The notes: a model not told the origin generated them from the sequence alone. 64,000 nt of DNA from an uncultured Chloroflexia bacterium (GCA_963726245.1 CAVSBT010000016.1:42901-106900); one strand, 5' to 3'. Shown: positions 38,457-54,659, counted from the stretch's first letter. Numbers and translations: made by a program.

Positions 38457-38684
38457 ATGGACCGATCACAGACGACAGGAATAATCATAATGGCAGGCGC
38501 CGCCTTGGAGATGCTGCTCTTCCTGTACGGCGCCGCCCGGCGCAGCTACATGGCGGTGGCCCTGCCCGTAATGGCTGCTGTGGCCGCCGTCTCCGCCCTC
38601 GCCTTCTGGGTGGGCTGGACCCTCCTCACGACCGAGGAGGAGATCCCCGAGCTGGAGGGCGAATCGGAGGGCACGACCGTCTAG
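38457..38684 (+). CDS. Small two-TM membrane protein of unknown function
   Basis: GGGAGG RBS, two hydrophobic helices, acidic tail. Confidence 0.7.
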   Translation: MDRSQTTGIIIMAGAALEMLLFLYGAARRSYMAVALPVMAAVAAVSALAFWVGWTLLTTEEEIPELEGESEGTTV

Positions 38685-38707
38685 GGCCCAGCTTAGAGGC
38701 GAAGAGC

Positions 38708-38736
38708 AAAGGGGGTCGCGGTTGCGACCCCTTTTT
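38708..38736. terminator. Bidirectional intrinsic terminator
   Basis: AAAGGGGGTCGC-GGTT-GCGACCCCTTTTT between convergent genes. Confidence 0.75.
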
Positions 38737-39270
38737 CACGCCTCGGGCCCGCCGGAGAGGCGGGCGTCGGTGCCAGCCGGCGGGCGCCACCAGCGTCACC
38801 CCCTCCTCGCCCGCGGCCGCCAGCAGCTCTCGCACCGTCTTCTTCAGGGTGGGGTGCCGCGCCTCGGGGGCGATCTCGGCCAGCGGCACCAGCACGAACG
38901 GCCGCTCGGCCAGCCGCGGATGGGGCAGCACCAGGTCGGCCGCTTCCACGACCCGATCGCCGTAGAGCAGGATGTCCAGGTCCAGGGGCCGCGGGCCCCA
39001 GCGCGGGCCGCCGGGCCGCCGCCCGACCTCGAACTCGACGCGCTTGAGGAAGCGCAGGAGCGCCTCGGGCTCCAGGCCGGTGGTGACGCGACAGGCGGCG
39101 TTGTAGAAGGGGGGCTGGTCCTCCACGCCGACGGGCGCCGTCTCGTAGAGGGAGGAGACCTCCTCCGGGCGGCACAGGCGCTCCAGGAGGCGCAGGCCCA
39201 TGCGCAGGTTGGCCTCGCGGTTTCCCAGGTTGGAGCCCAGCCCCAGGTAGACGGCCGGCCGGTCGCTCAC
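38736..39270 (-). CDS. folK: 2-amino-4-hydroxy-6-hydroxymethyldihydropteridine diphosphokinase (3' end approximate)
   Basis: YLGLGSNLG, SSLYET.P, WGPRPLDLDILLY, PHPR...R.FVL.PL.E. Confidence 0.93.
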
Positions 39271-40138
39271 CGCCGGTCGCCCTGCTTCCAGGACAAGTCG
39301 GCGCGAACGACGGCGTCGGCCACGCGGCAGACCTGCACCATCTCCGCCACGTCGTGGACGCGGACGATGTCGGCGCCGTGGGCGATGGCGATGGCCACGG
39401 TGGCGGCCGTGCCCATGAGCCGCTCCTCCACCGGCACGCCGCCCAGGACGGCCCCGATGGTGGACTTGCGCGAGGTGCCGATAAGGATCGGCAGCCCCAG
39501 GTCTCGGAGCTCCCCCAGGCGGCGCAGCATCTCGAGGTTGTGCTCCTCCGCCCAGCCGAAGCCGAAGCCGGGGTCGATGATGAGGCGCTGGCGGGGGATG
39601 CCGGCCTGCTGGGCCAAGCCCAGGCTGACCTCCAGGCCGGCCCGGATGTCGCCGATGACATCGTGGAAGTCGCGGCCGCGCTGGTTGTGCATGATCACGG
39701 CCGGCACCCCGCGACTCGGCGACCAGGGGCGCCATAGCCGGGTCGTGGCGGAAGCCCCAGATGTCGTTCACCAGGTGGGCGCCGGCCTCCAGGGCGGCCC
39801 GCGCCACGGCCGCCTTGTAGGTGTCGATGCTGACGGGCACGTCCACCTCGCGCGCCAGCCGCTCCACCACGGGCAGCACCCGGCGCATCTCCTCCTCCGG
39901 CGTCACGGCCTGAAAGCCGGGGCGCGTCGATTCGCCGCCCACGTCCAGGATATCGGCGCCCTCCTCGGCAAAGCGCCGGCCCTGGGCCACCGCCGCCTCC
40001 ACGTCGAGCCCCAGGCCGTCGCCTGAGAAGGAGTCCGGCGTCACGTTGATGATGCCCATGACGTAGGTGCGGGCAGCCCCAATCGAAGCGGCGGCCCCCG
40101 ATGGTGAGGGAGGTTGCCCCACCGTCTGTCCTTGCCAC
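39267..40138 (-). CDS. folP: Dihydropteroate synthase (apparent frameshifts near 40075 and 39710)
   Basis: MGIINVTPDSFS, DVGGESTRPG, SIDT, DPGFGF, SRKS, RVHDV. Confidence 0.93.
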
Positions 40139-40262
40139 GCGTCACCCTCCTTCAGAATGTCCAGTGAGAGGCATTCTAAGGCAGGTTCAGGGGCCGGGAC
40201 AAGGATAGACAGGCTATTGGGGGAGGACGGCAGCCGCGGTGGGCGGATTGTGGGACCGTAAC

Positions 40263-43200
40263 CTAGGCGGCGCGGGTCTCCTGGGCCTCGGCCTCCAGCA
40301 CCTGGACAAACGCCTCCACCACCTTGGGGTCGAACTGGGTGCCGGCGCCGCGCCGCAGCTCCTCGACCGCCTCCTCGCGGCTCATGGCCAGGCGGTAGGG
40401 CCGGTCGTTGGTCATGGCCGAGTAGGCATCGGCCACCGACAGGATGCGGGCCGTCATGAGGGATGCGCCGGCCCTTGAGGCCCCGCGGGTAGCCGCTGCC
40501 GTCGAACCACTCATGGTGGGCCGCCACGGCCGGCACTATGTCGGCCAGATGAGCGATGCCGCGCAGGATCGTCACGCTGAACTCTACGTGCTGGCGGATC
40601 AGCTTCCACTCTTCCTCGTTCAAGGGGCCCGGCTTGAGGAGGACACCGTCCGGTACGGCGATCTTCCCCACGTCATGCACCCAGCCGGCCCTGCGCAGGA
40701 TGTTCTGGTTTTCTCGCCCAGGCCCAGAGCGGCCGCCGCCAGCACGCTGTACTTGGCGACGTTGCCGACGTGGCTGGCGCATGGAGGGCTCTTTCTGGAT
40801 GAGAGCGCTGACGAGGCCCTGCATGGCGCTGAAGGCGCTGCTATCGGCCGGCATGAGCTCCTCGACCCGGCCACGGGCGGTGGTGATGCGGCCGCCACCC
40901 CGCTGCTTGGAGCGGTAGAGGGCGCTGTCGGCCAGGCGTCTACCAGCTCGTGCATGACGGTGGCATCGCTGGGGTAGCAGGCGACGCCCATGCTGATGCG
41001 AACCGGGACGCAGCCGTCCTTCCCCTCGCCCTCCAGATAGCGGGCAGCCAGGTTGGCCTGGATACGTTCTCCTATGCGCTCAGCCTCGGCGGTGTCGGCC
41101 TCAGGCAGAATGACCATGAACTCGTCGCCGCCGTAGCGCCCCACGATGTCCTCGGCCCGGCAACTGCTCTGGAGCACCGAGGCCAGGAGCTTCAGGGCTT
41201 CGTCGCCCACCTGGTGGCCGTAGGTGTCATTGATGAGCTTCAAGCTATCGATGTCGAGCATCAGGACGGCGACTGGACGGCGGCTCCGCTTGGCCCGAGC
41301 CATCTCCTGCTCCAGGCGCTCGTACAGGTGGCGGTGGTTGTACAGCCCCGTGAGGGGGTCGGCGATGGCCTGCTGCTGGACCTGCTCGTGGAGGCGGGCG
41401 TTCTCGATGAGGACCGCCGCCTGCCTGGCGATGGCGGCCATGCGTCTCCACCTCCTCCGGCGGGAAGTGCACGAAGTCGCTGAAGGAGTCGACCGCCATC
41501 ACCCCTATGGTCTCTTCCTTGACCACCAGCGGGTAGATGGCTATGGACTTGATGCCGAAGCTCTCCAGCCAGTCGCGCGGAAGGAGACGCGTAGCAGGGA
41601 CGTTCTCCTGGATGATGGGGGCGCGTATGCGGGTGATAGCCTCCACCAGCCGGTGCTCTCCGGCGTCGGCGGTACGCCGTGACGATGGAGCGGAACTTCT
41701 CCCACATCCTCTCATCCTCGGGGCCGAGGGACATGTAGGGCAGCAGCCTGCCCGTCGCCTTGTCGGCCAGGAAGATGCTACAGCGCTCGCCGACGCTGAG
41801 GTCGACCACCGAGCGGCAGAGGGTGATGATCACCTTCTGGAGGCTGAGGCTGGAGCTCGCCGCGCCCACCACCTGCAACAGCGCCTCCGCCCGCCGCCGC
41901 TGCTTCTGCTCTTGCTCGAAGAGCCTGGCGTTCTCGATGACGACCGCCGCCTGCCTGGCGATGGCGGCCAGGGTCTCCACCTCCTCTGGCGGGAAGTGCA
42001 CGAAGTCCCGGAAGGAGTCGACCGCCATGACCCCCACGTTCTTCTCCCTGTGGACAAGCGGGTAAAGGGCGAGCGACTTCACATTGAAGGTATCCACCCA
42101 GTAGTCGGGCAGGAGTCCCGACCCCGGCACATGCTCCTCGATGACGGGTTCCAGCGACTGGAAGGCCTCACTGATGCCGTGGACCTGCGATGCCTCGAGG
42201 GCCGACGACCCCTTGAACTTCTCCCACAGCGAGGGGTCCTCGATGCCAAGGGACATGATGGGTATGGCTCTCTCCTCTCCCTCCTCGGAGAGGAAGAAGG
42301 AGCAGCGGTCGCCCACGCTGAGGTCTACCACCGACTGGCACAACTTGATGAGGACCTTCTTGAGGCTGAGGCTGGAGCTCAGCCGCGCCCACTACCTGCA
42401 ACAGCGCCTCCGCCCGCTGCCGCTGCTTCTGCTCTTGCTCGAAGAGCCTGGCGTTCTCGATGACGACCGCCGCCTGCCTGGCGATGGCCGTCATCGCCTC
42501 GACCTCCTCCGGCGGGAAGTGCACGAAGTCGCTGTAGGAGTCAACGGCTATTACTCCTACCGTGGCATCCTTGACCATCAGCGGATAGATCGCCAGGGAC
42601 TTGAGCCCGAAACTGTCAATCCAGAAGTCGGGGAGGATGCCCGAACCGGGGACGTGCTCCTCGATGACAGGCTGCTGTACGTTAAGGGCGATGCCGAATC
42701 CGCGCACGTCGGGGATGCGCAGCCCGGCGGCGCCGCGGAACTGCTCCCACATGATCGGGCTCTCGGCTCCCAGCGACATGATCGGCTCGAGGGTGCCGCT
42801 TTCGGCGTTGAACAGGAACACGCTGCAGCGTTCGGCGACTGTGAGGTCCACCACCGATCGGCAGACGCTGATCAGCACTTTCTCCAGGCTGAGGCTGGAA
42901 CCGGCCGCATCCACGATGTTTAGGAGCGCCTCGGTTCGTCGCCGCTGCCCTTGCTCCCGCTCGAAGAGCCTGGCGTTGTCGATGAGGACCGCCGCCTGCC
43001 TGGCGATGGCGGTCATCGTCTCTACTTCCTCCTGGGAAGCGCAGGTACTTTCTGGTCGAATCCACCACCATGACGCCGACCACCTGGTCCCGGACGACCA
43101 TGGGATATATGGCCACGCTCTTCATCCCGAAGTCCTTGACCACTGACTTTGAGGGATGAGCCGCGTCCGGTTGGCGTGGCCGATGAGAATGGGCTTCTGG

Positions 43201-44024
43201 GTGAGGAGGACATCGCGCATCCCGGGCGCAAGACTGACAGGGACGCGCGCCGTGGCGCGGAAGCGCTGCCACATCTTCTCGTTCTTGAAGCCCAGGGACA
43301 TGAAGGGCTCCAGCGTCTCGCCGGCCTCATCGACCAGCAGGATGCTACAGCGGTCGGCCACGCTGAGCCTGGTGGCGGCCTCACAGACCTGGATGAGGGC
43401 TTGTTTCAGGCTAGGCTGGATCCGGCGGCGCGGACCAGCTCCAGAAGGGCCTGGGAGCGCTGTGCGCCCGCCGCTCGCGTTCGAGGAGGGAGGCGTTGGC
43501 CACAGCCGCGGCTATCTGCTGGGCGAAGACGCAGGCCACGCGCACGTCGTCGTCCGTGAAACGGCGGGGCGTGAAGCTGCCGATATAGAGGCACCCGATT
43601 TCCTCTCCGCCCACCCGCAGCGGCACCATGATGACGCCGCGGATGCCGAGCTTGCTGGCTTGCGACTCAGCGTAGTTGGGGTCGCGGGCGATGTCAGTGC
43701 TGACGTAGGGCTCGCTCGCCGCGGAAGACGATCCCCCTCCGGCTGGCGTCCCTGTCCAGGCGCCAGTGAGCAAGCGACCTCATCAGGAAGGCCGTACTGG
43801 GCGCGGAAGGTGGGGATGCCGCCCTCGAGCAGGGCGATGGCGGCGGCGTCGGCCTTCAGGGCCTCGCAGACGCCGCGGGCGGCAGCGGCCAGCACCTCGT
43901 CCAGACTGGGGCCTGCCTCGACATCGGATACCTGGAGGGACGCAGCCGGTTGTCCATGGCCTCCGGGACGCACGCTCCGACGGCGCTCGCCATCAATCCG
44001 CCGCCTACTTTCAGTATCGGCCAA
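40263..44024 (-). CDS. Multi-GAF diguanylate cyclase / HD-GYP phosphodiesterase hybrid (multiple apparent frameshifts; start approximate)
   Basis: ~5 GAF-like repeats; [13 protein letters not shown]-site and GRYGGDEF; [22 protein letters not shown]. Confidence 0.85.
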
Positions 44025-44100
44025 CTGGTGGATGTCAATAGGGGATAACTCGTTCAGGAGGCGAGTGAGGTGGGCGGGGAGAGCCGGCCCCAGGGCAGCC

Positions 44101-44502
44101 TCAGCCCTCGATCCTGAGCTCTTCCTCGGACACGCGGCCGTCCTGGATGCGGAAGGCCCTCAGGACGGGGTTCTCGGGGTCGGCCAGGGAGACGATGATG
44201 TAGGTCGACTCCGGCCAGGCGGCCAGGCGCACGTCAGTGGGGGAGGGATAGGCCTCGGTGTGGGTATGGGAGTGGTAGATGGCCAGGAAGTCCCAGCCGT
44301 TGGCGTCGCACTCGCGGTAGATGCGCAGGAGGTCGTGGGGGTCCACGTTGTAGCGATAGGGGCTCTTCTCGGCGTTGACGGCGCGAAACAGCTTCTCAAC
44401 CCGCCCATCGCGCCCGCCGAGGACGCCGCAGCACTCGTTGGGCGCCTCCTCGCGGGCCTGGGCGATGATCTCGTCGGCGTACTTGCGCTCCAGGACGAAC
44501 AC
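44101..44502 (-). CDS. JAMM/M67 metallopeptidase (Mec+/CysO-cysteine peptidase-like)
   Basis: E.CG.L, YHSH......PS..D JAMM motif. Confidence 0.92.
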   Translation of the reverse strand: MFVLERKYADEIIAQAREEAPNECCGVLGGRDGRVEKLFRAVNAEKSPYRYNVDPHDLLRIYRECDANGWDFLAIYHSHTHTEAYPSPTDVRLAAWPESTYIIVSLADPENPVLRAFRIQDGRVSEEELRIEG

Positions 44503-44563
44503 CGGCTCGTCCGTTAGTCCCAGCGCCTCACCTCTCCGTCGTCGATGTAGGCGGCAGGCGCCC

Positions 44564-45506
44564 CTACCACCAGATCATGGACTCTATCTCCTCCGGCAGG
44601 TCCTCGTACTCCTTGGTCCAGAGCTCGGTGGAGAGGTACTTCCAGCCCCCGTCGGCCAGGAGGAGAACGACGTTGCCCTCTCTTCAGGCGCCGCGCCACC
44701 CGCTGGGCCGTGCGCAGCACCGCCCCCGACGAGATGCCGGCGAAGATGCCCTCCTTCTGCGTGAGCTCCTTGGCGGCGGCGAAGGCCGTGCGCGAGGTCG
44801 ACCACGATCCTGCCGTCCAGCACCGACTCGTCGAACACCTCAGGGATGAAGCCGTCCTCCAGGCTGCGCAGCCCCTGGACCAGGTCGCCCGGGTGGGGCA
44901 CGGTGGCGATGACCTTCACGTCCGGCTTGCGCTCCTTCAGGTAGCGGCCGGCGCCGGTGAGGGTGCCGCCGGTACCCAGCCCCGCCACGAAGACATCCAC
45001 CTCCGGCAGGTCGCGCAGGATCTCGGGGCCGGTGGTCTCGTAGTGGGCGCGCGGATTGGCGACGTTGCCGAACTGGTAGGGCATGTAGTAGGCATCGGGG
45101 TCGGCGCGCATCATCTCCTGCGCCATGGCGATGGCGCCGTTGGTGCCCGTAGCGGCCGTCGCGTGTAGACGACCTCGGCCCCGAAGGCCTTCAGGAGCTG
45201 AGCCCGCTCTTCGCTGACGTTGTCCGGCATCACCGCCTTCACCCGGTAGCCCTTGAGACGGCCGATGAAGGCCAGGGCGATGCCGGTGTTGCCGCTGGTG
45301 GCCTCCAGGATGATCCGCTCCGGCGTCAGCTCGCCCTTCCGCTCGGCGTCCTCCAGCATGTACTTGGCGATGCGGTCCTTGACGCTGCCGGTCGGGTTCT
45401 GGCCCTCCAGCTTGGCGAAGAAGCGCACGTCCTCGTTAGGGCTGAGGTTGGGTAGCTGCACCAGCGGCGTGTTGCCGATGGCATCCAGGATGCTCGTGAT
45501 ACGCAA
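44564..45506 (-). CDS. cysM: PLP-dependent cysteine synthase, CysM type (sulfur-carrier dependent; frameshifted)
   Basis: IGNTPLV, NPTGSVKDR, TSGNTG, GTGGT; C-terminus ADGGWKYLS...WW* resembles mycobacterial CysM. Confidence 0.82.
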
Positions 45507-45518
45507 GGCGATCCCCGC

Positions 45519-45793
45519 TCAGGCGCCTCCCGCCAGGGCCGGCAGGATGGAGATACGTCGCCGTCCTGGAGGGGCGTGTCGAGGGCATCCAGGTAGCGGA
45601 TGTCCTCGTCGTTAAGGTAGATGTTCACGAAGCGGTGGAGCTGGCCGTCCTCGCCCGTGATCTGCTCCTTGAAGCCGGGATAGGCGGCATCCAGGTTGGC
45701 GAGAAGCTCGCCGACGGTGGCGCCCTCGCTCATCACGGACTTGGCGCCCACCACGCGCTGCAACACAGAAGTCAGACGGACCTCCACGGCCAT
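45519..45793 (-). CDS. Ubiquitin-like sulfur carrier (CysO/MoaD/ThiS family) ending ...ALAGGA*
   Basis: AGGAGG RBS; G.TV.ELL..L...YPG, FVNIYLNDEDIR, DTPL.DGD, ILPALAGGA after one indel. Confidence 0.88.
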
Positions 45794-45803
45794 ACGCTTC
45801 CTC

Positions 45804-46958
45804 CTAGGCGTCGTTGCCTGACCGGCGGGCAGGCCCGCCGCGGCATGGCTGCCGCCGGGGAACCCGCAGAACTCCTCGTAGTCGATGAGCTCCGTCACCG
45901 TCGGGTGGTCGCCGCAGACAGCGCACTCCGGGTCGCGGCGGATGCGGACGCTGCGCCACTCCATGGAGAGGGCATCGAACAGCAGCAGGCGGCCGCTAGA
46001 GACTCGCCCGCGCCCAGGATGAGCTTCATGGTCTCGATGGCCTGGATGCAGCCGATGACGCCCGGCAGGGCGCCCAGCACGCCGGCCTCGGCGCAGGAGG
46101 GCACCAGCCCCGGCGGCGGCGGCGTCGGGTAGAGGCAGCGGTAGCAGCCCTTGCCGGGCAGGAACACCGTGGCCTGGCCGTCGAAGAGGAGGACGCTGCC
46201 GTCCACCAGCGGCTTCTTGCAGGAAGACGCAGGCGTCGTTCACCAGGTAGCGGGCGGCGAAGTTGTCCATCCCGTTCACCACGATGTCGTACTGGGAGAT
46301 GATGTCCAGGGCGTTGTCGGAGGTCAGGGCACGTTGTGGGGCACCACCCGCACGTCCGGGTTATGGGCGGCGATGGTCTCCCGGGCCGACTCCACCTTGG
46401 GGCGGCCCACGTCCTCGGTATGGTGGAGGATCTGGCGCTGGAGGTTCGAGAGGTCCACGGCGTCGAAGTCGACGATGCCCAGGGTGCCGACGCCCGCCAG
46501 GGCCAGGTAGAGGGCCGCCGGCGAGCCCAGGCCGCCCGCCCCCAGGATGAGGACTCTGGCCTCCATGAGCTTTCGCTGCCCGACGCTGCCCACCTGGGGC
46601 ATGATGATGTGACGCGAGTAGCGCAGCACCTGCTGCTCGGTGAGGGCCCAAGGCGCCCGCGCCGGGTGCTCGCCATCGCCCGCGCCGCCGGCCAGGGCGG
46701 GGATCACCGCCACCTGATCGCCGTCCTCGAGGGGTGTCGCCGTGCCCTCCAGGGTGCTGATCTCCTGGTTGTTGACGTAGATGTTGATGTGGGCCGGGAT
46801 CTCGATTCGTCATCGTTGAAGACCAGGCTTCTGAATCCCGGGAACTGGCGCTCCAGGTCCTCCAGAAGCTCGGCCACGTCCTTGCCGTGCGCCTCCACCT
46901 GGGACCGGTTGCCGGTCAGCCGGCGGAAGGGCGACGGCACGTACACCGAGACTGCCAT
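45804..46958 (-). CDS. moeB: Ubl (MoaD-like)-MoeB/ThiF E1 adenylyltransferase fusion (frameshifted)
   Basis: N-terminal beta-grasp ending IPALAGG runs without a stop into [40 protein letters not shown]. Confidence 0.85.
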
Positions 46959-47008
46959 CCTATCCTCCGAGTGGGTATGGGTCGCCGAGTTTCATCTCTG
47001 CCCTGTCT

Positions 47009-47956
47009 CTACAGGTTCACGCTCAGGTATCGCTCGCCGGTGTCGGGCAGGATGGTAACGACGCGCTTGCCCGCGCCCAGGCGCCGGGCCACGACCACGG
47101 ACGCGTGGACGTTGGCCCCCGCCGAGATGCCTACCAGCAGGCCCTCTTCGCTCGTGAGCCGTCGCGTCATCTCCAGCGCGTCCTCGTCGCGCACGGCGAT
47201 GATCTCGTCGATGACCTCGCGGTTGAGCACGCCCGGCACGAAGCTGGCGCCGATGCCCTGGATAGCGTGCAGCCCGGCCTTGCCCCCTCCCAGGACCGGC
47301 GAGCGGGCGGGCTCCACCGCCACCACCAGAATGCGCGGATTCTGCTCCTTCAGCACCTCGCCGACGCCGGTGATGGTGCCGCCGGTGCCCACACCCGCCA
47401 CGAAGGCGTCCAGGCGCCCTTCCGTCGCCCGCAGGATCTCGCGGGCGGTGGTCCGGCGGTGGATCTCCGGGTTGGCCGGGTTGTTGAACTGCTGGGGCAT
47501 GAAGTAGCCGGGGTTCTTCTCCACCAGCTCCTCGGCAGCGTGAACGGCGCCGCTCATCCCCTCGATGGCCGGCGTCAGCACCAGCTTGGCCCCGTAGCGG
47601 CCGAACAGCTTGCGCCGCTCCACGCTCATGTCCTCGGGCATGGTGAGGATGAGGTGATAGCCCTTGACCGCCGCCACCATGGCCAGGCCGATGCCCGTGT
47701 TGCCGCTGGTGGGCTCGACGATGGTGTCGCCGGGCTTGATGAGCCCCCGCTCCTCGGCGTCCTCGATCATGCTGAGGGCGATGCGGTCCTTGATGCTGCC
47801 CGCCGGGTTCAGGGACTCCATCTTGCCCAGAACCTCGGCGGCGCCCTCGGGGATCACCCGTCGCAGGCGGACCAGGGGGGTGTTCCCGACCAGGTCCAGC
47901 ACGCTGTCCGCGACGAACTCCGCCCTCTCCCGCCTGGCTTCAGAGCGCGTAGTCAA
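47009..47956 (-). CDS. cysK: Cysteine synthase A (O-acetylserine sulfhydrylase)
   Basis: [43 protein letters not shown]. Confidence 0.94.
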
Positions 47957-47975
47957 CGCTTACCCCCTCAAATCC

Positions 47976-48416
47976 CTAAATGACGTAGCGCCCGCCGCCG
48001 TTACCGGCCTGGCGCTCACGGGATGCCAGATCGCCGATCGAGACATCATCCAGAATCTTGCGAGTGGCGTCACGCACGGCCTCCCAGACCTCACGCTGAG
48101 GGCAGAAGCCGCGCTTGCTACAGCCGTCCGGCTCGTCGACGCAGGCGATGGGCGATAGAGAGCCCTCCAGCGCGCCCACGACCTCACTCAACTTGAGGTT
48201 CTGCGGTTCTCGGATGAGGGCGTGTCCGCCCTGTGGTCCGCGCACGCTCCGGATGAAGCCCGCCCGGCGCAGGGTCGTGAGGAGTTGGTCCAGGTAGGGC
48301 TCGGGGATGCTCTGTCGAGCGGCGATCTCGGCGCTCTGAAGGGGCCCCTGCCCAAAGTGGTGCGCCAGCTCTATGAGGGCGCGCACGCCGTAGTCGCCCT
48401 TGGTGGACACGCGCAA
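47976..48416 (-). CDS. Rrf2 family transcriptional regulator with three Cys (Fe-S binding type)
   Basis: STKGDYG.RA, YLDQL...LRRAG...S.RGP.GG, C-x6-C-x5-C. Confidence 0.92.
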   Translation of the reverse strand: MRVSTKGDYGVRALIELAHHFGQGPLQSAEIAARQSIPEPYLDQLLTTLRRAGFIRSVRGPQGGHALIREPQNLKLSEVVGALEGSLSPIACVDEPDGCSKRGFCPQREVWEAVRDATRKILDDVSIGDLASRERQAGNGGGRYVI

Positions 48417-48447
48417 CGGGACTTCACCTCCCTATGTCTCGGCACAA

Positions 48448-48459
48448 AGTTAAGTAACT
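48448..48459. promoter_or_regulatory. Candidate Rrf2 operator (AGTTA-AG-TAACT) in an AT-rich promoter region
   Basis: Inverted repeat just downstream of an extended -10 TGCTAAAAT (minus strand), flanked by two CTCGGCAC direct repeats. Confidence 0.35.
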
Positions 48460-48581
48460 ACGTCAACAATTTTAGCACGCTCGGCACTTAGCAACAAGGA
48501 GAAGGCGGTGCGTGGCCAAAGACGGCCACAGACACCGCAGATTGCTATTGGTGCTACAATGCACGCGTCCAGGGGAGTTGG

Positions 48582-50009
48582 ATGCCAGACTCGAGCCCTC
48601 AGCAGCTCCCGGAAAGCGACGAGGCCCTGGCCGCAAGAGCAGCCCGGGGAGACCAAGCGGCCTTCGTCGCCCTGTACGACCGCCACTTCCACGACATCTA
48701 CGATTTCCTCGCCCGTCTGCTGCTGTCTCGCCGGAGAGCCGCGACAGCGCTTCTTTCCACCTTCGTTCGCTTCCGCCGGCGCCTCTCGGAGGAGCACGGA
48801 CGGGGCAGCCCGCGGCTGGCGATCCTGGCTACGGCCTACCAGGCGGCCATCGAGGAAGGGCCGTCAACGGCTGAAATCGCCGGCGGCGATGAGGAGGAGC
48901 AGCTTCGCACGTTCGCACAGGTAGACCCGGACAGGCTGGCCAGCCCCGGCGAGGCGGCTCAAGCGCAGGAGGAGGCGCTGATCGTATGGCAGGGCGCGGC
49001 CGGCGTGGACCGCACAGAGTACGCCCTTCTGGACCTGCACTTGAGACGGGGACTAAATGCGGCGCAAGCGGGGCAGGTGCTCGGCATGGGGAGGTTCAAG
49101 GTGGGAGGCATGATCTCCCGCCTGAAGACGGCAGCCGAAGAGGCCTTCACTTCCCTTCTCGTGTTCAGGTTCGGCCGTCAGCAGTGCACGGAGCTGGATC
49201 AGCTCGCCGCCAGCATGGATGAGGCCGCCCTGCCGTCCGAGTCGAGGCACCTCGTGAGCGGCCACATCGCCGCCTGCGCCAACTGCTCTGAGACCAGGAA
49301 GCGATTGGTCCCGCCCCTGAACGTGCTGGCGGCCCTCCTGCCCGTGCCGCCGGTGCCCGGCGTGAAGGATGCGGTCCTCCAGGACTTGCTGTCCTACACC
49401 GCCGTCCAGGCCGGCGCCGCAGTCGCCGCTGCGGCGGCGCGAGAGGCGGCGCCACCGCGTCCTGCGCCGATGGGCCCGCCTCCGCAGCGTCCGGGCATCC
49501 CCCCGGCCATCGGCGGCTCAACGGGTGGGCCTGTTTTCCCGCTCATCATCGGGGCGGCCGTGGCCCTGGCCATTCCGGTGGCTGCCCTGCTGCTCTGGCT
49601 GGCGGTGCTCTCCGGCGATGGCGGCGACGGCTCCGCCAGCGTCGAGCCCACATCTACGCCGCTGGGCGGGGCTGCGCTGGAGGGCTGCGGGAGCGCCGGC
49701 CCTGGCACACCAGGGCTGGGCACCTGCACGCCAACGCCCACGCGAACCGCCACCCTGACGCCCACAGCGACTGCCGCCACAAAGACGCCTTCGCCCACCG
49801 GCACGGCCAGCCCCTCTCCGTCGGCGACGGCACCGCCCGTTGCGACGGCGACGAAGACGCCGGTGGTCGGAGAGACTCCCACGGGGACGGTGGAAACGGC
49901 GACGCCGACGCCCAAGCCGTCGCCGGGGCCAGGCGCCACTGCCACCGCCGCGAGCTCGCCCTCTCCGGCCCACAGTCCCTCGCCGGGAGCGTCACCCTCC
50001 CCACACTAG
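48582..50009 (+). CDS. ECF sigma-like protein fused to a ZAS zinc motif, TM helix and Pro/Thr-rich tail
   Basis: D..L..RA..GD..AF..LY region 2, region-4-like HTH, HIAACANC, hydrophobic helix, TPTPT-rich C-terminus. Confidence 0.72.
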   Translation: MPDSSPQQLPESDEALAARAARGDQAAFVALYDRHFHDIYDFLARLLLSRRRAATALLSTFVRFRRRLSEEHGRGSPRLAILATAYQAAIEEGPSTAEIAGGDEEEQLRTFAQVDPDRLASPGEAAQAQEEALIVWQGAAGVDRTEYALLDLHLRRGLNAAQAGQVLGMGRFKVGGMISRLKTAAEEAFTSLLVFRFGRQQCTELDQLAASMDEAALPSESRHLVSGHIAACANCSETRKRLVPPLNVLAALLPVPPVPGVKDAVLQDLLSYTAVQAGAAVAAAAAREAAPPRPAPMGPPPQRPGIPPAIGGSTGGPVFPLIIGAAVALAIPVAALLLWLAVLSGDGGDGSASVEPTSTPLGGAALEGCGSAGPGTPGLGTCTPTPTRTATLTPTATAATKTPSPTGTASPSPSATAPPVATATKTPVVGETPTGTVETATPTPKPSPGPGATATAASSPSPAHSPSPGASPSPH

Positions 50010-50096
50010 GGGACTAGGCCGAAGGCAACGCCTTCCCCGAGCTGGCACCCTCGTCAGGCCGCCGCCCTGATGCTCGTATGCGGTCGGGGTGGGATT

Positions 50097-50372
50097 CTAG
50101 CCGCCGGCGACGGCGGGCACGATGCTCACCTCATCGCCCGCTTTGAGGGGCGTCTCCAGCCCGGAGAGGAAGCGCACGTCCTCGCCGTTGACGTAGAGGT
50201 TGATAAAGCGACGGATCTCGCCGCTCTCGTCGCAGAGGCGCTCCTTGAGGCCGGGATATTCCTGATCCAGGCGTCCGATGATCTCCACCAGGCTGCCGCC
50301 GTCGGCGGTGACGGTCTCGCGGTTGCCGGTTACCTTCCGCAGCGGCCCTGGGATACGTACTGTCACGCTCAA
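50097..50372 (-). CDS. Ubiquitin-like MoaD/ThiS family sulfur carrier ending AVAGG*
   Basis: VRIPGPLR, FINLYVNGEDVR, IVPAVAGG*; GGAGG RBS. Confidence 0.92.
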   Translation of the reverse strand: MSVTVRIPGPLRKVTGNRETVTADGGSLVEIIGRLDQEYPGLKERLCDESGEIRRFINLYVNGEDVRFLSGLETPLKAGDEVSIVPAVAGG

Positions 50373-50408
50373 TGTAAGACCTCCATTGACGGGGTCCGCC
50401 GGGGCGTA

Positions 50409-50651
50409 TCAGCCCTCGACGATGTCGCCCTCCACGGGGTCGACGCGCACGCCCTGTGAGGTTACCCACTGGATGCCGCGCTCGATCTCCTGGAGGTCGC
50501 CATCCAACTCCAGCACCACCCAGCCGCGGTCCTCGGTGACGTCGGCCCGGCGGATATTAGTCACCAGGCTAAAGGTCTTGCCCAACTCGTAAATAACGGG
50601 CAGAGTGATGAGCTCCTGGGGAAAGGTGAACTTCACACGCTGCTTGGCCAT
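50409..50651 (-). CDS. Stand-alone NIL domain protein
   Basis: MAKQRVKFTFP.....PVIY.L...F.LVTNIRRADV....GWVVLEL.G. Confidence 0.82.
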   Translation of the reverse strand: MAKQRVKFTFPQELITLPVIYELGKTFSLVTNIRRADVTEDRGWVVLELDGDLQEIERGIQWVTSQGVRVDPVEGDIVEG

Positions 50652-50682
50652 GCTCTTCCCCCTCGTCGAGGCCGCCCCAGGC

Positions 50683-51930
50683 CTAGCCCGCGGGCAGGGC
50701 CTCGTCTCGCTGTTCCACGGCTTGCTCAAAGGCGCCCAGGGTGGGCTCGATGTGGAGCGGCTCCCGCAGGCGCCCCCAGACGGCCTCCTGCGTCTTCAAC
50801 CCGGCGCCGGTTATAAAGGCCACCACCAGCTCGTCGCGGCCCACGCGGCCGGCCTCCACCAGCCGCCGCAGTCCGGAGACCACCACTCCGCCGGCCGTCT
50901 CGGCGAAGACGCCCTCGCTCTCGGCCAGAAGGCGGATGCCTTCCACCACCTCGTCGTCGCTCACCGCCACCGCCGAGCCGCCGGAGTCGGCCATCGTCCG
51001 CAGGGCATAGTAACCGTCGGCGGGGTTGCCGATGGCCAGCGACTTGGCGATGGTGTTGGGCTTGACCGGCCTGATGTTCAGCGTTCCCGCCTGCCAGGCG
51101 TTGACGATGGGCGAGCAGCCCGCCGCCTGGGCCCCGGATATCCTGGTCTGCACGCTATCGACGAGCCACAGTTTAGCCAGTTCGTCGAGACCTTTCCATA
51201 TCTTGGTCAAGAGAGAGCCGCTGGCCATGGGGATGATGCAGTGGTCGGGGGCCCGCCAGCCCAACTGCTCCGCCACCTCGTAGGCCAGGGTCTTGCTGCC
51301 CTCGGAATAGTAGGGGCGGACGTTGATGTTGACGAAGGCCCAGCCGTACTTGTCCGCCAGCTCCGAGCAGAGGCGGTTCACCTCGTCGTAGCTGCCGTCG
51401 ACGGCCACCAGCGTGGCGCCGTAGACGGCGGAACCGATCAGCTTGCCCGACTCCAGGTCGGCGGGCACGAAGACGAAGGCGTCCATGCCCGCCTTGGCGG
51501 CGTGGGCGGAGACGCTGTTGGCCAGGTTGCCTGTCGAGGCGCAGGCCAGGGTCTTGAACCCGAACTCGCGCGCCTTGGTGCTGGCCACCGCCACCACCCG
51601 GTCCTTGAAAGACCAGGTGGGGTTCACGCAGTCGTTCTTGATGTAGAGATGGCTCAGGCCAAGCTCCTCACCCAGGTTGACGGCCCGAAAGAGGGGTGTG
51701 AAGCCCGCCCCGATGTCCACGGCGCCTTCGGCGTCGCAGGGCAGGAGGTGGCGGTAGCGCCAGAGGGTGAGGGGCCCGCGCTCGATAGCCTCGCGGGTGG
51801 CCGTCTTGCGTATGGCCTCGTAGTCGTAGGCGACCTCCAGCGGGCCAAAGCAGAACTCGCAGACGTTGATGGGGTCGAGCGGGTACTCCCGCCCGCACTC
51901 ACGGCACTTCAGGGCTGTGGCAAAGGACAT
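50683..51930 (-). CDS. thrC: Threonine synthase-like PLP enzyme with N-terminal Zn ribbon
   Basis: CRECG...CEFC, G.TPL, NPTWSFKDR, ASTGN, EGSKT..YE, TG.GLK. Confidence 0.85.
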   Translation of the reverse strand: MSFATALKCRECGREYPLDPINVCEFCFGPLEVAYDYEAIRKTATREAIERGPLTLWRYRHLLPCDAEGAVDIGAGFTPLFRAVNLGEELGLSHLYIKNDCVNPTWSFKDRVVAVASTKAREFGFKTLACASTGNLANSVSAHAAKAGMDAFVFVPADLESGKLIGSAVYGATLVAVDGSYDEVNRLCSELADKYGWAFVNINVRPYYSEGSKTLAYEVAEQLGWRAPDHCIIPMASGSLLTKIWKGLDELAKLWLVDSVQTRISGAQAAGCSPIVNAWQAGTLNIRPVKPNTIAKSLAIGNPADGYYALRTMADSGGSAVAVSDDEVVEGIRLLAESEGVFAETAGGVVVSGLRRLVEAGRVGRDELVVAFITGAGLKTQEAVWGRLREPLHIEPTLGAFEQAVEQRDEALPAG

Positions 51931-52083
51931 GACGGCGGTACCTCGGAGGCGCTCCAGGCCGCGATGAACCCGGAGCGGGCTGGACTAGCTGTCCGCTTGG
52001 GGTGGCCCGACTCGCTCGGGCCGAGGCATCGCCATCGAGTGGTAGAACATCTTGAGTGTGATTATCCGCCAGTTGTGGCGGAG

Positions 52084-52112
52084 ATGGTAACAGAGGAAGG
52101 CGAATCTGTCAA
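52084..52112 (-). promoter_or_regulatory. Sigma70 promoter for the thrC-NIL-Ubl operon
   Basis: TTGACA-N17-TACCAT on the minus strand. Confidence 0.7.
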
Positions 52113-52128
52113 ATTGACGGAGTCCGAG

Positions 52129-52653
52129 TCACGGGCAGGCTGACAGCGCGTCCACCGCCTCCTCCCAGTAGGTGCGGTCGCGGCCCCAGCCTTCCTCCCA
52201 CATGGCGCGGAGGTAGTCGATCTGGGCGCCGTGGTAGAGGGCGTGCTGCATCAGGCGATTGCTGATGAAGTTCAGCGTGATGGGCTCGCCTCCCGGACGG
52301 CCGGGCCGGCCCAGCCGCTCAGGGAGAACCGACGGCCAGACGGCGTCGAGCTCGGCGTCGACGGCCGAGGCGAGCACCGCGTCCAGGCGGCCGCGCACCT
52401 GCTGCAAGGAGGCGAGGATGGTCTCCAGGGGCGCCCCGCGCTCGACGGCAGGCGGCAGCTCCTCGCCCTCGCGCCAGAGCCAGTAGACGATGGCGTCGCG
52501 CACGTGGCCCAAGAGCCGGGCGATGGTGAAGCCGTGGCCCGGGCGCTCCCACAGGTGCTCAGGCGGCAGGCCGTCCAGCGAGTGCAGGAAATTATCGTAC
52601 ACCAGCCGCAGCACCTGCCGCCGCCGCTCGACTATGTCTCTGGATGCTGACAT
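52129..52653 (-). CDS. DinB-family protein
   Basis: TIARLLGH...WL and H..YH.AQI..LR motifs. Confidence 0.78.
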   Translation of the reverse strand: MSASRDIVERRRQVLRLVYDNFLHSLDGLPPEHLWERPGHGFTIARLLGHVRDAIVYWLWREGEELPPAVERGAPLETILASLQQVRGRLDAVLASAVDAELDAVWPSVLPERLGRPGRPGGEPITLNFISNRLMQHALYHGAQIDYLRAMWEEGWGRDRTYWEEAVDALSACP

Positions 52654-52691: not shown

Positions 52692-53592
52692 TTAGACGGC
52701 CACCGGCAGGTCGATGCGGTGTCGCTTCACCTCGGCGGCGATCTTCTCCCCCGCTGCCTGGTCCACCTCGCACAGAGGAAGCCGCAGGCCGCCCACCGGG
52801 AAGCCGACTACGTTGAGGGCGTGCTTGATGGGAATGGGATTACTGGCTGCCGTCATCAATATGCTCATGAGCGGCAGCAGGCTCCGATGGGTGCGGGCCG
52901 CCTCGTCCACCCGGCCGGCCAGGTAAGCCTCGATCATGCCCTTCATCTGGCTGCCCACCAGGTGGGAGACCACACAGATGACGCCGTAGCCGCCCACGGA
53001 GAGGATAGGCAGGGTATCGCTGTCGTTGCCGCTCCAGACCAAGAAGTCTTCGCGGGTGTTCTCGACGATGTGGGCCACCTGCTCCATGTTGCCGCTGGCC
53101 TCCTTCACCCCCACGATGTTGGGGATGCGCGAGAGGCGAACGATGGTCTCCGCGAGTGATGTTCACCCCGGTGCGGCCGGGGATGTTATAGAGGATGCAG
53201 GGCAGGCTAATGGCGCGGGCGATGGCCTCGAAGTGGCGGAAGATGCCCTCCTGGGTGGGCTTGTTGTAGTAGGGGCAGGTGAGCAGGAGCCCGTCGACGC
53301 CCGCGCGCTCCGCTTCCCGGCTAAGCTCCACGCTTTCGGCCGTGTTGTAGCTGCTGGTGCCGGCGATGACGACTCCGGCGCCGCCCACCGCCCGATTCAC
53401 CTCGGCAAAGAGGCGCAGCTTCTCCTCTGTGGTCAGGGTAGGCGCCTCGCCCGTCGTTCCCGACAAGACGACGCCGTCGCTACCCGACTCCAGAAGGGCC
53501 AGCGCCAGGCGCCCGGCCTGGGCGTAGTCGACGGCGCCCTCGGGCGTGAACGGCGTAACCATAGCCGTGAGTAGACGGCCTATCTGAGCCAT
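52692..53592 (-). CDS. dapA: 4-hydroxy-tetrahydrodipicolinate synthase (apparent frameshift near 53152)
   Basis: TAMVTPF, GTTGE, PYYNKP, YNIPGRT, GVKEASG, SGND, NPIPIK. Confidence 0.94.
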
Positions 53593-53621: not shown

Positions 53622-54659
53622 CTAGATCAGGTTCCTGGTGACCAGCTCCTCGGCGATCTGGATAGCGTTGGTGGCGGCGCCCTTTCGCAGGTTGTCGCTC
53701 ACGATCCAGAATACCATGCCGTTGGGGTGCGAGCTGTCCTGGCGGATGCGTCCCACGAAGACGTCGTCCTGGCCGGTCGCCGTCCATGGCTGCGGGTAGA
53801 GGCTGACGCTGGGGTCGTCCTGGACAGCCACGCCGGGGGCCTGACTCAGGATATCCCGCACGTCGTCCGCCGACCAGGGCCGGCTGAACTCGACGTGGAC
53901 GGCGGCGCTGTGGCTGACGAATATGGGCGCGCGCACGCACGTCGCCGAGATGGCGATGCTCTCGTCGTGCATGATCTTCCGCGTCTCCGCCATCATCTTC
54001 CATTCTTCCTTCGTGTAGCCGTCGTCCCGGAAGACATCGATCTCCGGCAGAACGTTGAAGGCGATCTGGTGCGGGTAGACGTGGGGAACGACGTTCTTGC
54101 CCTCCAGCACGGCTTTGCTCTGGACGTTCAGCTCCTCCACGGCCAGCCTGCCGGTGCCGGACACCGACTGGTAGGTGGCGGCGGTAATGCGCTTCACGGC
54201 GTTCACCCGGTGCAGGGGCCAGAGCACCATCACGATCGGCGTCGTCGAGCAGTTGGGGATGGCGAGGATGCCCTTGTGCCACTCCACATCGTCGGCGTTG
54301 ATCTCGGGCACCACCAGCGGCACCTGGGGGTCCATCCGCCAGGCAGAGCTGTCGTCAATGGCCACAGCCCCCAGCTTGGCCACCATGGGGCAGTACTCGC
54401 GCGAGGCCGCCCCGGAGGCGGAGATGAAGACCAGGTCCGAGCCTTCGAAGGACTTGGGTGTCGTCTCCTCCACTACCAGCTCCTGCTCGCCCACCATCAT
54501 GCGCTTACCGGCCGATCGCGAGGTAGCGAGGAGCTTGAGCGAGGCAACCGGGAAACGGCGCTCCAGGAGTATCTTGATGAACTCCTGGCCCACCACTCCC
54601 GCGGCGCCCACGACGGCGATGTTGTACTGCTTGTGGCCGTCAGGCGACATGTGTGGCAT
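53622..54659 (-). CDS. asd: Aspartate-semialdehyde dehydrogenase
   Basis: PLVVPEIN, PNCST, TYQSVSG.G, DNLRKGAA.NA.QI. Confidence 0.96.
   Translation of the reverse strand: MPHMSPDGHKQYNIAVVGAAGVVGQEFIKILLERRFPVASLKLLATSRSAGKRMMVGEQELVVEETTPKSFEGSDLVFISASGAASREYCPMVAKLGAVAIDDSSAWRMDPQVPLVVPEINADDVEWHKGILAIPNCSTTPIVMVLWPLHRVNAVKRITAATYQSVSGTGRLAVEELNVQSKAVLEGKNVVPHVYPHQIAFNVLPEIDVFRDDGYTKEEWKMMAETRKIMHDESIAISATCVRAPIFVSHSAAVHVEFSRPWSADDVRDILSQAPGVAVQDDPSVSLYPQPWTATGQDDVFVGRIRQDSSHPNGMVFWIVSDNLRKGAATNAIQIAEELVTRNLI

Follow-up and report, generated by a model that had tools for sequence, protein, structure and literature searches.

A Chloroflexota sulfur-amino-acid gene cluster with a ubiquitin-like carrier fused to its own E1

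Carrier-dependent synthesis of cysteine and homocysteine is known from few model organisms only. Here we describe a set of sulfur genes from an uncultured Chloroflexia bacterium, at positions 44101-51930 of a stretch of 64,000 nucleotides (GCA_963726245.1 CAVSBT010000016.1:42901-106900, hereafter the window). We consider it likely that these genes form a Dehalococcoidia-type Chloroflexota supercluster for sulfur amino acids, with a cysteine branch of the CysO/CysM/Mec type, a homocysteine branch of the MetM/MetO type, carriers of the ubiquitin-like (Ubl) fold that are matured by a JAMM peptidase, and frameshifts that are errors of the assembly. The observations behind this reading are the identities of the genes, the conservation of a Ubl-E1 fusion and of its operon, intact catalytic motifs, split forms of the fusion in relatives and a supportive model of a protein complex. 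A large, mostly uncultured group of Chloroflexota encodes both branches side by side, and one of the carriers is the N-terminus of its own activating enzyme (E1).

The sulfur genes all lie on the minus strand of a contig with a G+C content of 67%, which belongs to a metagenome-assembled genome (MAG) of 2.68 Mb (46 contigs, 83% complete). The cysteine branch is headed by an Rrf2-family regulator (48416-47976; PF02082, E 1.1e-36), which resembles CymR and IscR but scores below the cut-offs of those families (NCBIfam CymR, 114 bits, under the cut-off of 195). It is followed by CysK, a conventional cysteine synthase A (47956-47009) that passes the cysK equivalog cut-off (TIGR01139, 451.3 bits against 350.95), and by Ubl1-E1, in which a CysO-like Ubl is joined through a 13-residue linker to a MoeB-type E1 (46958-45804; PF02597 and PF00899). 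Next come Ubl2, a free CysO-type carrier that ends ILPALAGG-A-stop (45793-45519; PF02597 over its N-terminal part, E 2.1e-10), a CysM-type cysteine synthase lying in three frames (45506-44564; PF00291 pieces), and an intact, Mec-like JAMM/MPN+ metallopeptidase (44502-44101; PF14464, E 1.1e-24). The intact CysM orthologue of Tepidiforma flava reaches 364.8 bits on TIGR01136 cysKM (cut-off 344.15) and passes no CysM equivalog cut-off.

Upstream of the regulator lie a ThrC-family pyridoxal phosphate (PLP) enzyme with an N-terminal Cys4 zinc ribbon, the probable MetM-type homocysteine synthase (51930-50683; PF00291, E 3.7e-72), a small NIL-domain protein (50729-50409; PF09383, E 8.9e-13) and Ubl3, a free, MetO-like carrier of the CysO/MoaD type that ends VAGG-stop (50372-50097; PF02597, E 1.3e-18). 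An earlier note on this DNA had placed three Ubl carriers at these positions, with tails read as an internal Gly-Gly, GG-A-stop and GG-stop, and a conventional CysK beside the carrier genes; all of this is borne out.

How might these parts work together? In the cysteine branch the E1 would adenylate the C-terminal glycine of a small carrier, and sulfur would turn the adenylate into a thiocarboxylate. The fused E1 has no rhodanese domain, so its sulfur source would be free sulfide or a rhodanese whose gene lies elsewhere. CysM would convert the carrier thiocarboxylate to a carrier-cysteine adduct, from which the JAMM peptidase would then free cysteine, with CysK acting as an ordinary sulfide-using enzyme alongside the carrier route. 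The ThrC-like enzyme, the NIL protein and Ubl3 would make homocysteine from O-phosphohomoserine. Carriers with anything after Gly-Gly would be trimmed first, of one Ala in the case of Ubl2 and of the whole E1 in the case of Ubl1; the same JAMM would most likely cut directly after Gly-Gly, which would yield a third free carrier and an E1 of normal length. These chemical steps are all our inference, as are the cleavage and the choice of enzyme that Ubl1 serves.

The Ubl-E1 fusion and its operon in relatives

Judged from the comparison of sequences, the Ubl-E1 fusion is real. Ubl1 starts at ATG 46958 and is frameshifted near 46803-46809, beyond which an uninterrupted frame of 161 amino acids (46809-46327) contains both the last part of the ThiS-family domain (PF02597, E 6.9e-07) and the first part of the ThiF domain (PF00899, E 1.4e-37). 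Within this frame the Gly-Gly codons of Ubl1 (46689-46684) are followed by the linker and by the conserved start of the E1, which carries two CxxC motifs, and no stop lies between them. The same holds once the sequence is corrected from a same-genus genome (G001) and from metagenome contigs, so that the stop codon after the first Gly-Gly, which the earlier note had named as refuting its idea, is absent. Could the fusion still be an artefact of the assembly? This is ruled out by relatives: 33 of the 40 compared, across five families within the order, have a junction free of stops, and intact ORFs running from the Ubl through Gly-Gly and linker into the E1 were recovered (loci L005-L023 and L024-L103).

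A scan of species-representative genomes gave 344 stretches that encode relatives, and the counts of public loci given below refer to the best 80 of these. Gly-Gly and the RYSRH segment of the E1 share one open frame in 77 of the 80, which come nearly all from Dehalococcoidia or Chloroflexota MAGs, plus the cultured T. flava (L061). Among 301 evenly sampled Chloroflexota genomes, the fused form is found in at least 22, the genome of the window included, from several families in and outside the class; 109 further, weaker matches stand outside this count. In four more genomes of the same sample the Ubl is followed by one in-frame stop and then by the E1. Within a collection of 5.8 billion proteins, PF02597 and PF00899 occur together in 119 of the best 120 clusters, and the names on these, where given, are 'MoeB', 'adenylyltransferase/sulfurtransferase', or adenylyltransferase plus 'converting factor small subunit'. 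These three sets of counts indicate that the architecture is widespread and is seen by automatic annotation.

The operon is conserved as well. The order Rrf2, CysK, Ubl1-E1, Ubl2, CysM is found in 55 of the 80 loci, and contig ends interrupt many of the rest. In the survey proposed by the earlier note, fusion and operon both came out as conserved. Of the 61 loci with enough downstream sequence, 38 have a JAMM gene on the same strand at most 3.2 kb downstream of CysM. Of the 54 loci that extend far enough upstream, 11 have the ThrC-like, NIL and Ubl3 genes immediately before Rrf2 and on its strand, as does G001; the NIL gene is part of all 11 ThrC-like/Ubl3 trios. In three loci (L051, L040 and L101) CysM or JAMM is present and Ubl2 is absent. 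The only carriers there are the fused Ubl1 and Ubl3, which therefore leaves the fused Ubl1 as the sole cysteine-side carrier at the locus.

One relative carries a second, divergent match (G003:C19:134769-135200, 45% identity) that spans the end of a Ubl and the start of an E1 in an open frame of 471 amino acids, and suggests a paralogous second Ubl-E1 fusion.

Maturation of the carriers

The three carriers are CysO/MoaD-type paralogues. Ubl2 and Ubl3 share about 48% identity within a genome, and Ubl1 shares 35-37% with either. When the T. flava orthologue was searched against the PDB by sequence, CysO of Mycobacterium tuberculosis matched the Ubl1 domain (3dwg_C, E 1.8e-13) and MoeB of E. coli matched the E1 part (1jw9_B, E 1.5e-55), and no solved chain was found that holds both parts. 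Each of five genomes checked has 5-6 ThiS-family matches. A strong one (63.8 bits) lies about 4.5 kb before the start of the window, at G000:C16:38182-38412, within an open frame of 430 amino acids, and may be a further Ubl fused to another protein.

The tails of the free carriers differ. Of 66 relatives, 25 have a Ubl2 that stops at Gly-Gly and 41 have one that continues for 1-14 residues, and G001 has the same GG-A ending as the window; Ubl3 homologues end at Gly-Gly in 14 of 17 cases. The three maturation states of the earlier note are thus not a conserved design, because the length of the Ubl2 tail varies from 0 to 14 residues. The 41 relatives with tailed Ubl2 imply that a peptidase acting after Gly-Gly would be required in any case.

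The earlier note had seen only one E1, without a rhodanese domain. One E1 is correct for the locus but not for the genome, which encodes a second E1, a plain ThiF protein of 279 amino acids (L001, at G000:C30:181641-182348), whose neighbours, alpha/beta hydrolases, are uninformative. The lack of a rhodanese domain is upheld, since Pfam gives ThiF pieces only for the fused E1; the T. flava orthologue reaches 386.1 bits on the MoeZ model NF005902, which has a cut-off of 647, and the rhodanese genes of this genome lie on other contigs only. Similarly, the single JAMM of the earlier note is the only one at the locus, and a weak second Prok-JAB match (25.7 bits) is present on contig C17 of the same genome.

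All 24 aligned sequences of the JAMM peptidase keep the catalytic positions E23, H77, H79, S87 and D90. Searches for a Prok-JAB gene succeeded in all five genomes checked and, among 25 genomes with a fused or split Ubl/E1 pair, in 24, the sole miss being a genome that is 73% complete. The IPA[LIM]AGG tail of the fused Ubl1 is present in 78 of 84 ORF matches, the other six being fragments or split forms, and this IPAxAGG tail is retained as strictly as the tails of free carriers. Conservation of the two cysteine-side carriers is also similar, with a mean pairwise identity of 0.589 for Ubl1 and 0.607 for Ubl2 in the same 65 genomes. On these grounds the fused Ubl1 looks like a working carrier. 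Its internal Gly-Gly has no free carboxylate for adenylation, and Ubl1 is therefore either cut free or no carrier.

The linker to the E1 is unconstrained; it ranges from 3 to 35 residues and has no conserved sequence. There are also split forms. In L096, for example, Ubl1 ends AGGSQPAAQAAAQ-TAG, ten residues after Gly-Gly, and a separate ATG starts the E1, while in G022 Ubl1 ends AGGNTR-stop, with an ATGA overlap onto the start of the E1. We further modelled the JAMM in complex with Ubl1 plus linker, taking the sequences from L024, which is the closest of the intact relatives that carry both genes on a single contig. The model scored 0.78 and the best of three controls 0.01. Among solved complexes 116 of 157 attain the mark of the model, and among mismatched pairs 2 of 215 do; the runs share at least 66% of contacts, and the partner has a predicted local distance difference test (pLDDT) value of at least 74. 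On the Ubl chain it is residues 86-95, i.e. IPALAGG and the first three linker residues, that contact JAMM positions 23, 77, 79 and 87-90.

A JAMM cut after the Gly-Gly of both Ubl1-E1 and Ubl2 is the best reading of these comparative and modelling data. The proposal of the earlier note, that the JAMM unmasks GG-A and cleaves the Ubl-E1 protein, is accordingly supported by the conserved Gly-Gly, the variable linker, the split forms and the complex model, rather than shown.

Several points weigh against cleavage. The pass of the complex model may reflect memory, because JAMM-Ubl complexes similar to the modelled pair exist among solved structures, and the modelled linker, at 15 residues, is longer than many natural ones. 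Many relatives have only three variable residues between the two parts, and at most five are found in 30 of 78 junctions, which may hinder a protease. The JAMM gene is not nearby in 23 of 61 loci, and the only one of T. flava lies about 1 Mb away. Tails on Ubl2 do not track the proximity of the JAMM gene either, as they occur in 20 of 36 loci with a JAMM nearby and in 17 of 23 without. Nor does co-occurrence with a JAMM single out a processing role, because the release of cysteine, the role of Mec, predicts a JAMM anyway. The second, plain E1 could serve some of the carriers. Finally, our literature searches found no characterised Ubl-E1 fusion, only the work of Iyer et al. 2006 and that on MoaD-MoaE, SAMP and Uba4-Urm1.

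Some of these points fit a different arrangement, in which Ubl1 is never cleaved and serves as a permanent accessory domain of the E1, either for docking or regulation with CysM, CysK or a sulfur donor, or as a pseudo-substrate, so that only Ubl2 and Ubl3 carry sulfur. The linkers of down to three residues and the 23 loci with no JAMM gene nearby agree with this, as does the free carrier Ubl2 that follows the fusion in 55 of the 80 loci. For another family of fusions, in which a ThiF-fused Ubl stands beside a free ThiS, Iyer et al. 2006 (PMC1779556) suggest a different, non-carrier role, which also speaks against cleavage here. A docking domain, however, would not need the tail that the fused Ubl1 keeps so strictly, and in the split forms Ubl1 is a separate protein. 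Loci that have no Ubl2 still hold CysM, and the complex model puts the junction in the active site of the JAMM. We regard a permanently attached Ubl1 as unlikely, and as the most serious of the alternatives.

If the JAMM does cut the fusion, what would the attached Ubl1 do beforehand? The N-terminal RYSRH segment of the E1 presumably carries an active-site arginine, as in MoeB, and Ubl1 is attached a few residues before it. It is conceivable, if rather doubtful, that the fusion is a zymogen-like 'pro-E1', blocked for as long as Ubl1 is attached, in which one JAMM cut frees the third carrier and allows activation of all carriers. The JAMM would then be a master valve for the sulfur that enters cysteine and homocysteine, and might respond to metal or redox state. 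The protease-gated sulfur hub of the earlier note is likewise speculation, which our results do not support.

Frameshifts and protein conjugation

Three of the genes described above are broken in this assembly. We compared them with G001, which has 89.7% DNA identity to the window and in which all genes of this region are intact. There are ten frameshifting indels of 1 nucleotide: four in CysM, all insertions (near 45163, 45152, 44800 and 44679), one in Ubl2, a deletion (near 45555), and five in Ubl1-E1 (near 46809, 46803, 46331, 46219 and 45998). The JAMM, CysK, Rrf2, Ubl3, NIL and ThrC-like genes have none. All ten sites are also contradicted by contigs of four public metagenome runs, which are short pieces of relatives, 88-99% alike, rather than of the same strain, and none of which spans the whole stretch. 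From these comparisons the frameshifts are probably assembly errors.

Could CysM, Ubl2 and Ubl1-E1 instead be decaying pseudogenes, with real frameshifts and loss of the carrier-dependent cysteine branch in this organism? The distribution of the indels favours such decay: all ten fall within 2.4 kb, none occurs in some 4.5 kb of coding sequence around them, and most of the sites show no long single-base run, which is odd for random sequencing error. Against decay, the ratios of non-synonymous to synonymous substitution rates (dN/dS) against G001, with indels skipped, are 0.134 for CysM, 0.145 for Ubl2, 0.271 for the E1 domain and 0.146 for the Ubl1 domain, similar to the 0.07-0.37 of the intact neighbours, and the broken genes have no in-frame stops once the indels are skipped. 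Other genes of the window are also frameshifted (dapA, an MFS transporter and a GAF protein), and all ten positions are free of indels in G001 and in the contigs of the four runs, relatives as these are. We judge decay of the three genes to be quite improbable.

One further detail concerns the end of the E1. As assembled, the E1 frame runs past a conserved TAG (45806-45804) and enters Ubl2 without a stop, since this TAG, the stop codon of the E1 in G001, lies out of frame here. Ubl2 retains its own GGAGG and ATG. The out-of-frame stop is probably one more indel, the alternative being a Ubl1-E1-Ubl2 triple fusion; the metagenome contigs do not settle the stop frame in this strain, because they are short, come from relatives and do not span the stretch.

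The weakest alternative is that the system serves mainly in SAMP/TtuB-like protein conjugation, with the E1 activating the Ubls for target lysines and the JAMM removing them, which we find highly improbable: Ubl3 does score above the NCBIfam SAMP1 cut-off (67.7 against 60 bits; moaD_arch, 56.7 bits), the best NCBIfam match of the JAMM is desampylase (93.5 bits) and the E1 has 342.8 bits on the model of the SAMP-activating E1 (UbaA), but the latter two are under their cut-offs of 130 and 450, the Ubl1 (47.5 bits) and Ubl2 (52 bits) of T. flava are under that of SAMP1, every Ubl adjoins a PLP enzyme of sulfur-amino-acid metabolism in an Rrf2-headed operon, as in the CysO and MetO routes, an ORF and Pfam survey of the region saw no E2-like gene, and nothing at this locus points to conjugation in particular.

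The homocysteine branch, known systems and neighbouring genes

The ThrC-like, NIL and Ubl3 genes probably encode a homocysteine branch of the MetM/MetO type, as judged by analogy of gene context. The ThrC-family enzyme lies near a carrier that ends in Gly-Gly, and another ThrC paralogue is found elsewhere in the genome (42% identity, at G000:C36:8796-9830). That membership of the MetM family comes from gene context only counts against this assignment, and in NCBIfam the enzyme scores as a threonine synthase. The second ThrC (L105) is flanked by an S49 peptidase and a protein with no Pfam match; as it is not in a hom/thrB operon, its context does not confirm which of the paralogues makes threonine. 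The NIL ORF as listed begins at TTG 50729 and overlaps the 3' end of the ThrC-like gene, and ATG 50651 is the probable start of the protein. A search for a SAM (S-adenosylmethionine) riboswitch upstream of the ThrC-like gene gave no Rfam match at the gathering threshold in the whole window. The sole Rfam match within 51850-52200 was a chance one to a miRNA (E 0.85), and the riboswitch was rejected.

The locus is a composite of modules that have been described before. In M. tuberculosis, CysO, CysM, Mec+ and MoeZ carry out thiocarboxylate-dependent cysteine synthesis, in which CysM takes O-phosphoserine. Our locus has in common with that system (3DWG, 3DWM) a CysO-family Ubl with Gly-Gly, an adjacent CysM-type enzyme, a JAMM whose motif is intact and an E1 that belongs to the MoeB/MoeZ family. 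It differs in that the E1 lacks the C-terminal rhodanese domain of MoeZ, an extra CysO paralogue sits on the N-terminus of the E1, Ubl2 has a one-residue cap, and CysK and Rrf2 are part of the operon. The cap recalls Wolinella succinogenes, where HcyS-Ala has an extra residue after Gly-Gly that a JAMM enzyme removes before activation, in a system with HcyD and HcyF that feeds O-acetylhomoserine sulfhydrylase. A residue after the Gly-Gly of the carrier is thus common to both, whereas the capped carrier here adjoins CysM and not O-acetylhomoserine sulfhydrylase.

For the homocysteine branch the model is Streptomyces albulus MetM/MetO, which with Mec and MoeZ provides a route from O-phospho-L-homoserine to homocysteine (Hasebe et al. 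2024 as cited in PMC13759103, PMC12172450). The route appears in Table 2 of GapMind 2026 (PMC13759103) and is also discussed in PMC12172450. Likened by gene context, both systems have a ThrC-family enzyme near a Gly-Gly-ended carrier and a separate ThrC paralogue, but here a NIL protein lies between the two genes, and the SAM riboswitch reported for S. albulus metM has no counterpart among our Rfam matches.

For the proposed cleavage the closest parallels are MoaD-MoaE fusions activated by JAMM enzymes. As described in PMC8832034, DR0402 (a JAMM) cuts the MoaD-MoaE protein of Deinococcus radiodurans (DR2607) to leave a C-terminal Gly, and HvJAMM1 cuts Haloferax SAMP1-MoaE. In these cases, as here, the Gly-Gly of a Ubl is joined in-frame to a partner enzyme and the genome has a stand-alone JAMM gene. 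The partner here is an E1 and not MoaE, the pathways are those of cysteine and homocysteine rather than molybdopterin, and the cleavage is putative. If it is true that the JAMM cuts the fusion, the range of Ubl fusions that a protease activates would widen from MoaD-MoaE to Ubl-E1, and bacteria would have a counterpart to ubiquitin, which is made as a fusion precursor.

Much of this was anticipated by Iyer, Burroughs and Aravind 2006 (PMC1779556). Row 4c of their Table 1, which includes Chloroflexus, lists operons of ThiS/MoaD, E1, JAB and cysteine synthase; section 16 proposes that JAB enzymes cleave ThiS/MoaD fusions and so free the C-terminus; and Ubl domains on the N-terminus of certain ThiF proteins are also noted. 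Common to that catalogue and our locus are therefore the N-terminal Ubl on an E1-like enzyme, the type of operon and the proposal of a C-terminus freed by JAB. The ThiF fusions, as presented there, carry a Ubl 'distinct from ThiS' and belong to thiamine operons, whereas ours has a CysO-type Ubl that retains Gly-Gly, and the operons of row 4c, as tabulated, have an E1 fused to rhodanese, unlike the E1 here. The twists here are the CysO-type carrier fused to a rhodanese-less E1, the NIL protein in a MetM/MetO module and the absence of a SAM riboswitch. The gain is incremental, because the architecture was catalogued and the mechanism proposed in 2006. There is also some value for annotation, as the fusion is at present named just 'MoeB' and the MetM-like gene 'threonine synthase'. 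The cultured T. flava carries the operon, and the model is therefore testable.

Turning to the neighbouring genes, the two sulfur clusters are separated by an unrelated gene on the plus strand (48582-50009), which encodes a protein of 475 amino acids with no Pfam match. The N-terminal region of this protein is sigma-factor-like in look, and it has an anti-sigma-like HxxxCxxC motif, a membrane segment and a long tail rich in Pro, Thr and Ala. The gene is also present in G001, at only 76% DNA identity, and looks like an insertion, because the ThrC-like/NIL/Ubl3 trio directly abuts Rrf2 in other relatives.

Directly upstream of the ThrC-like gene lie a DinB-family protein (52129-52653, minus strand) and aspartate-family genes, namely a frameshifted dapA (about 52692-53570, minus strand) and asd (53622-54659, minus strand). 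On the other side of the locus, just downstream of the JAMM gene, is a long gene of repeated GAF domains (41261-44038, minus strand), which falls in several frames and whose protein has internal near-repeats. Beyond it, an open frame of 817 amino acids (38629-41079, minus strand) combines HD, pterin-binding (DHPS) and HPPK domains, and is either a fusion of the folate pathway or a set of separate frames joined by indels.

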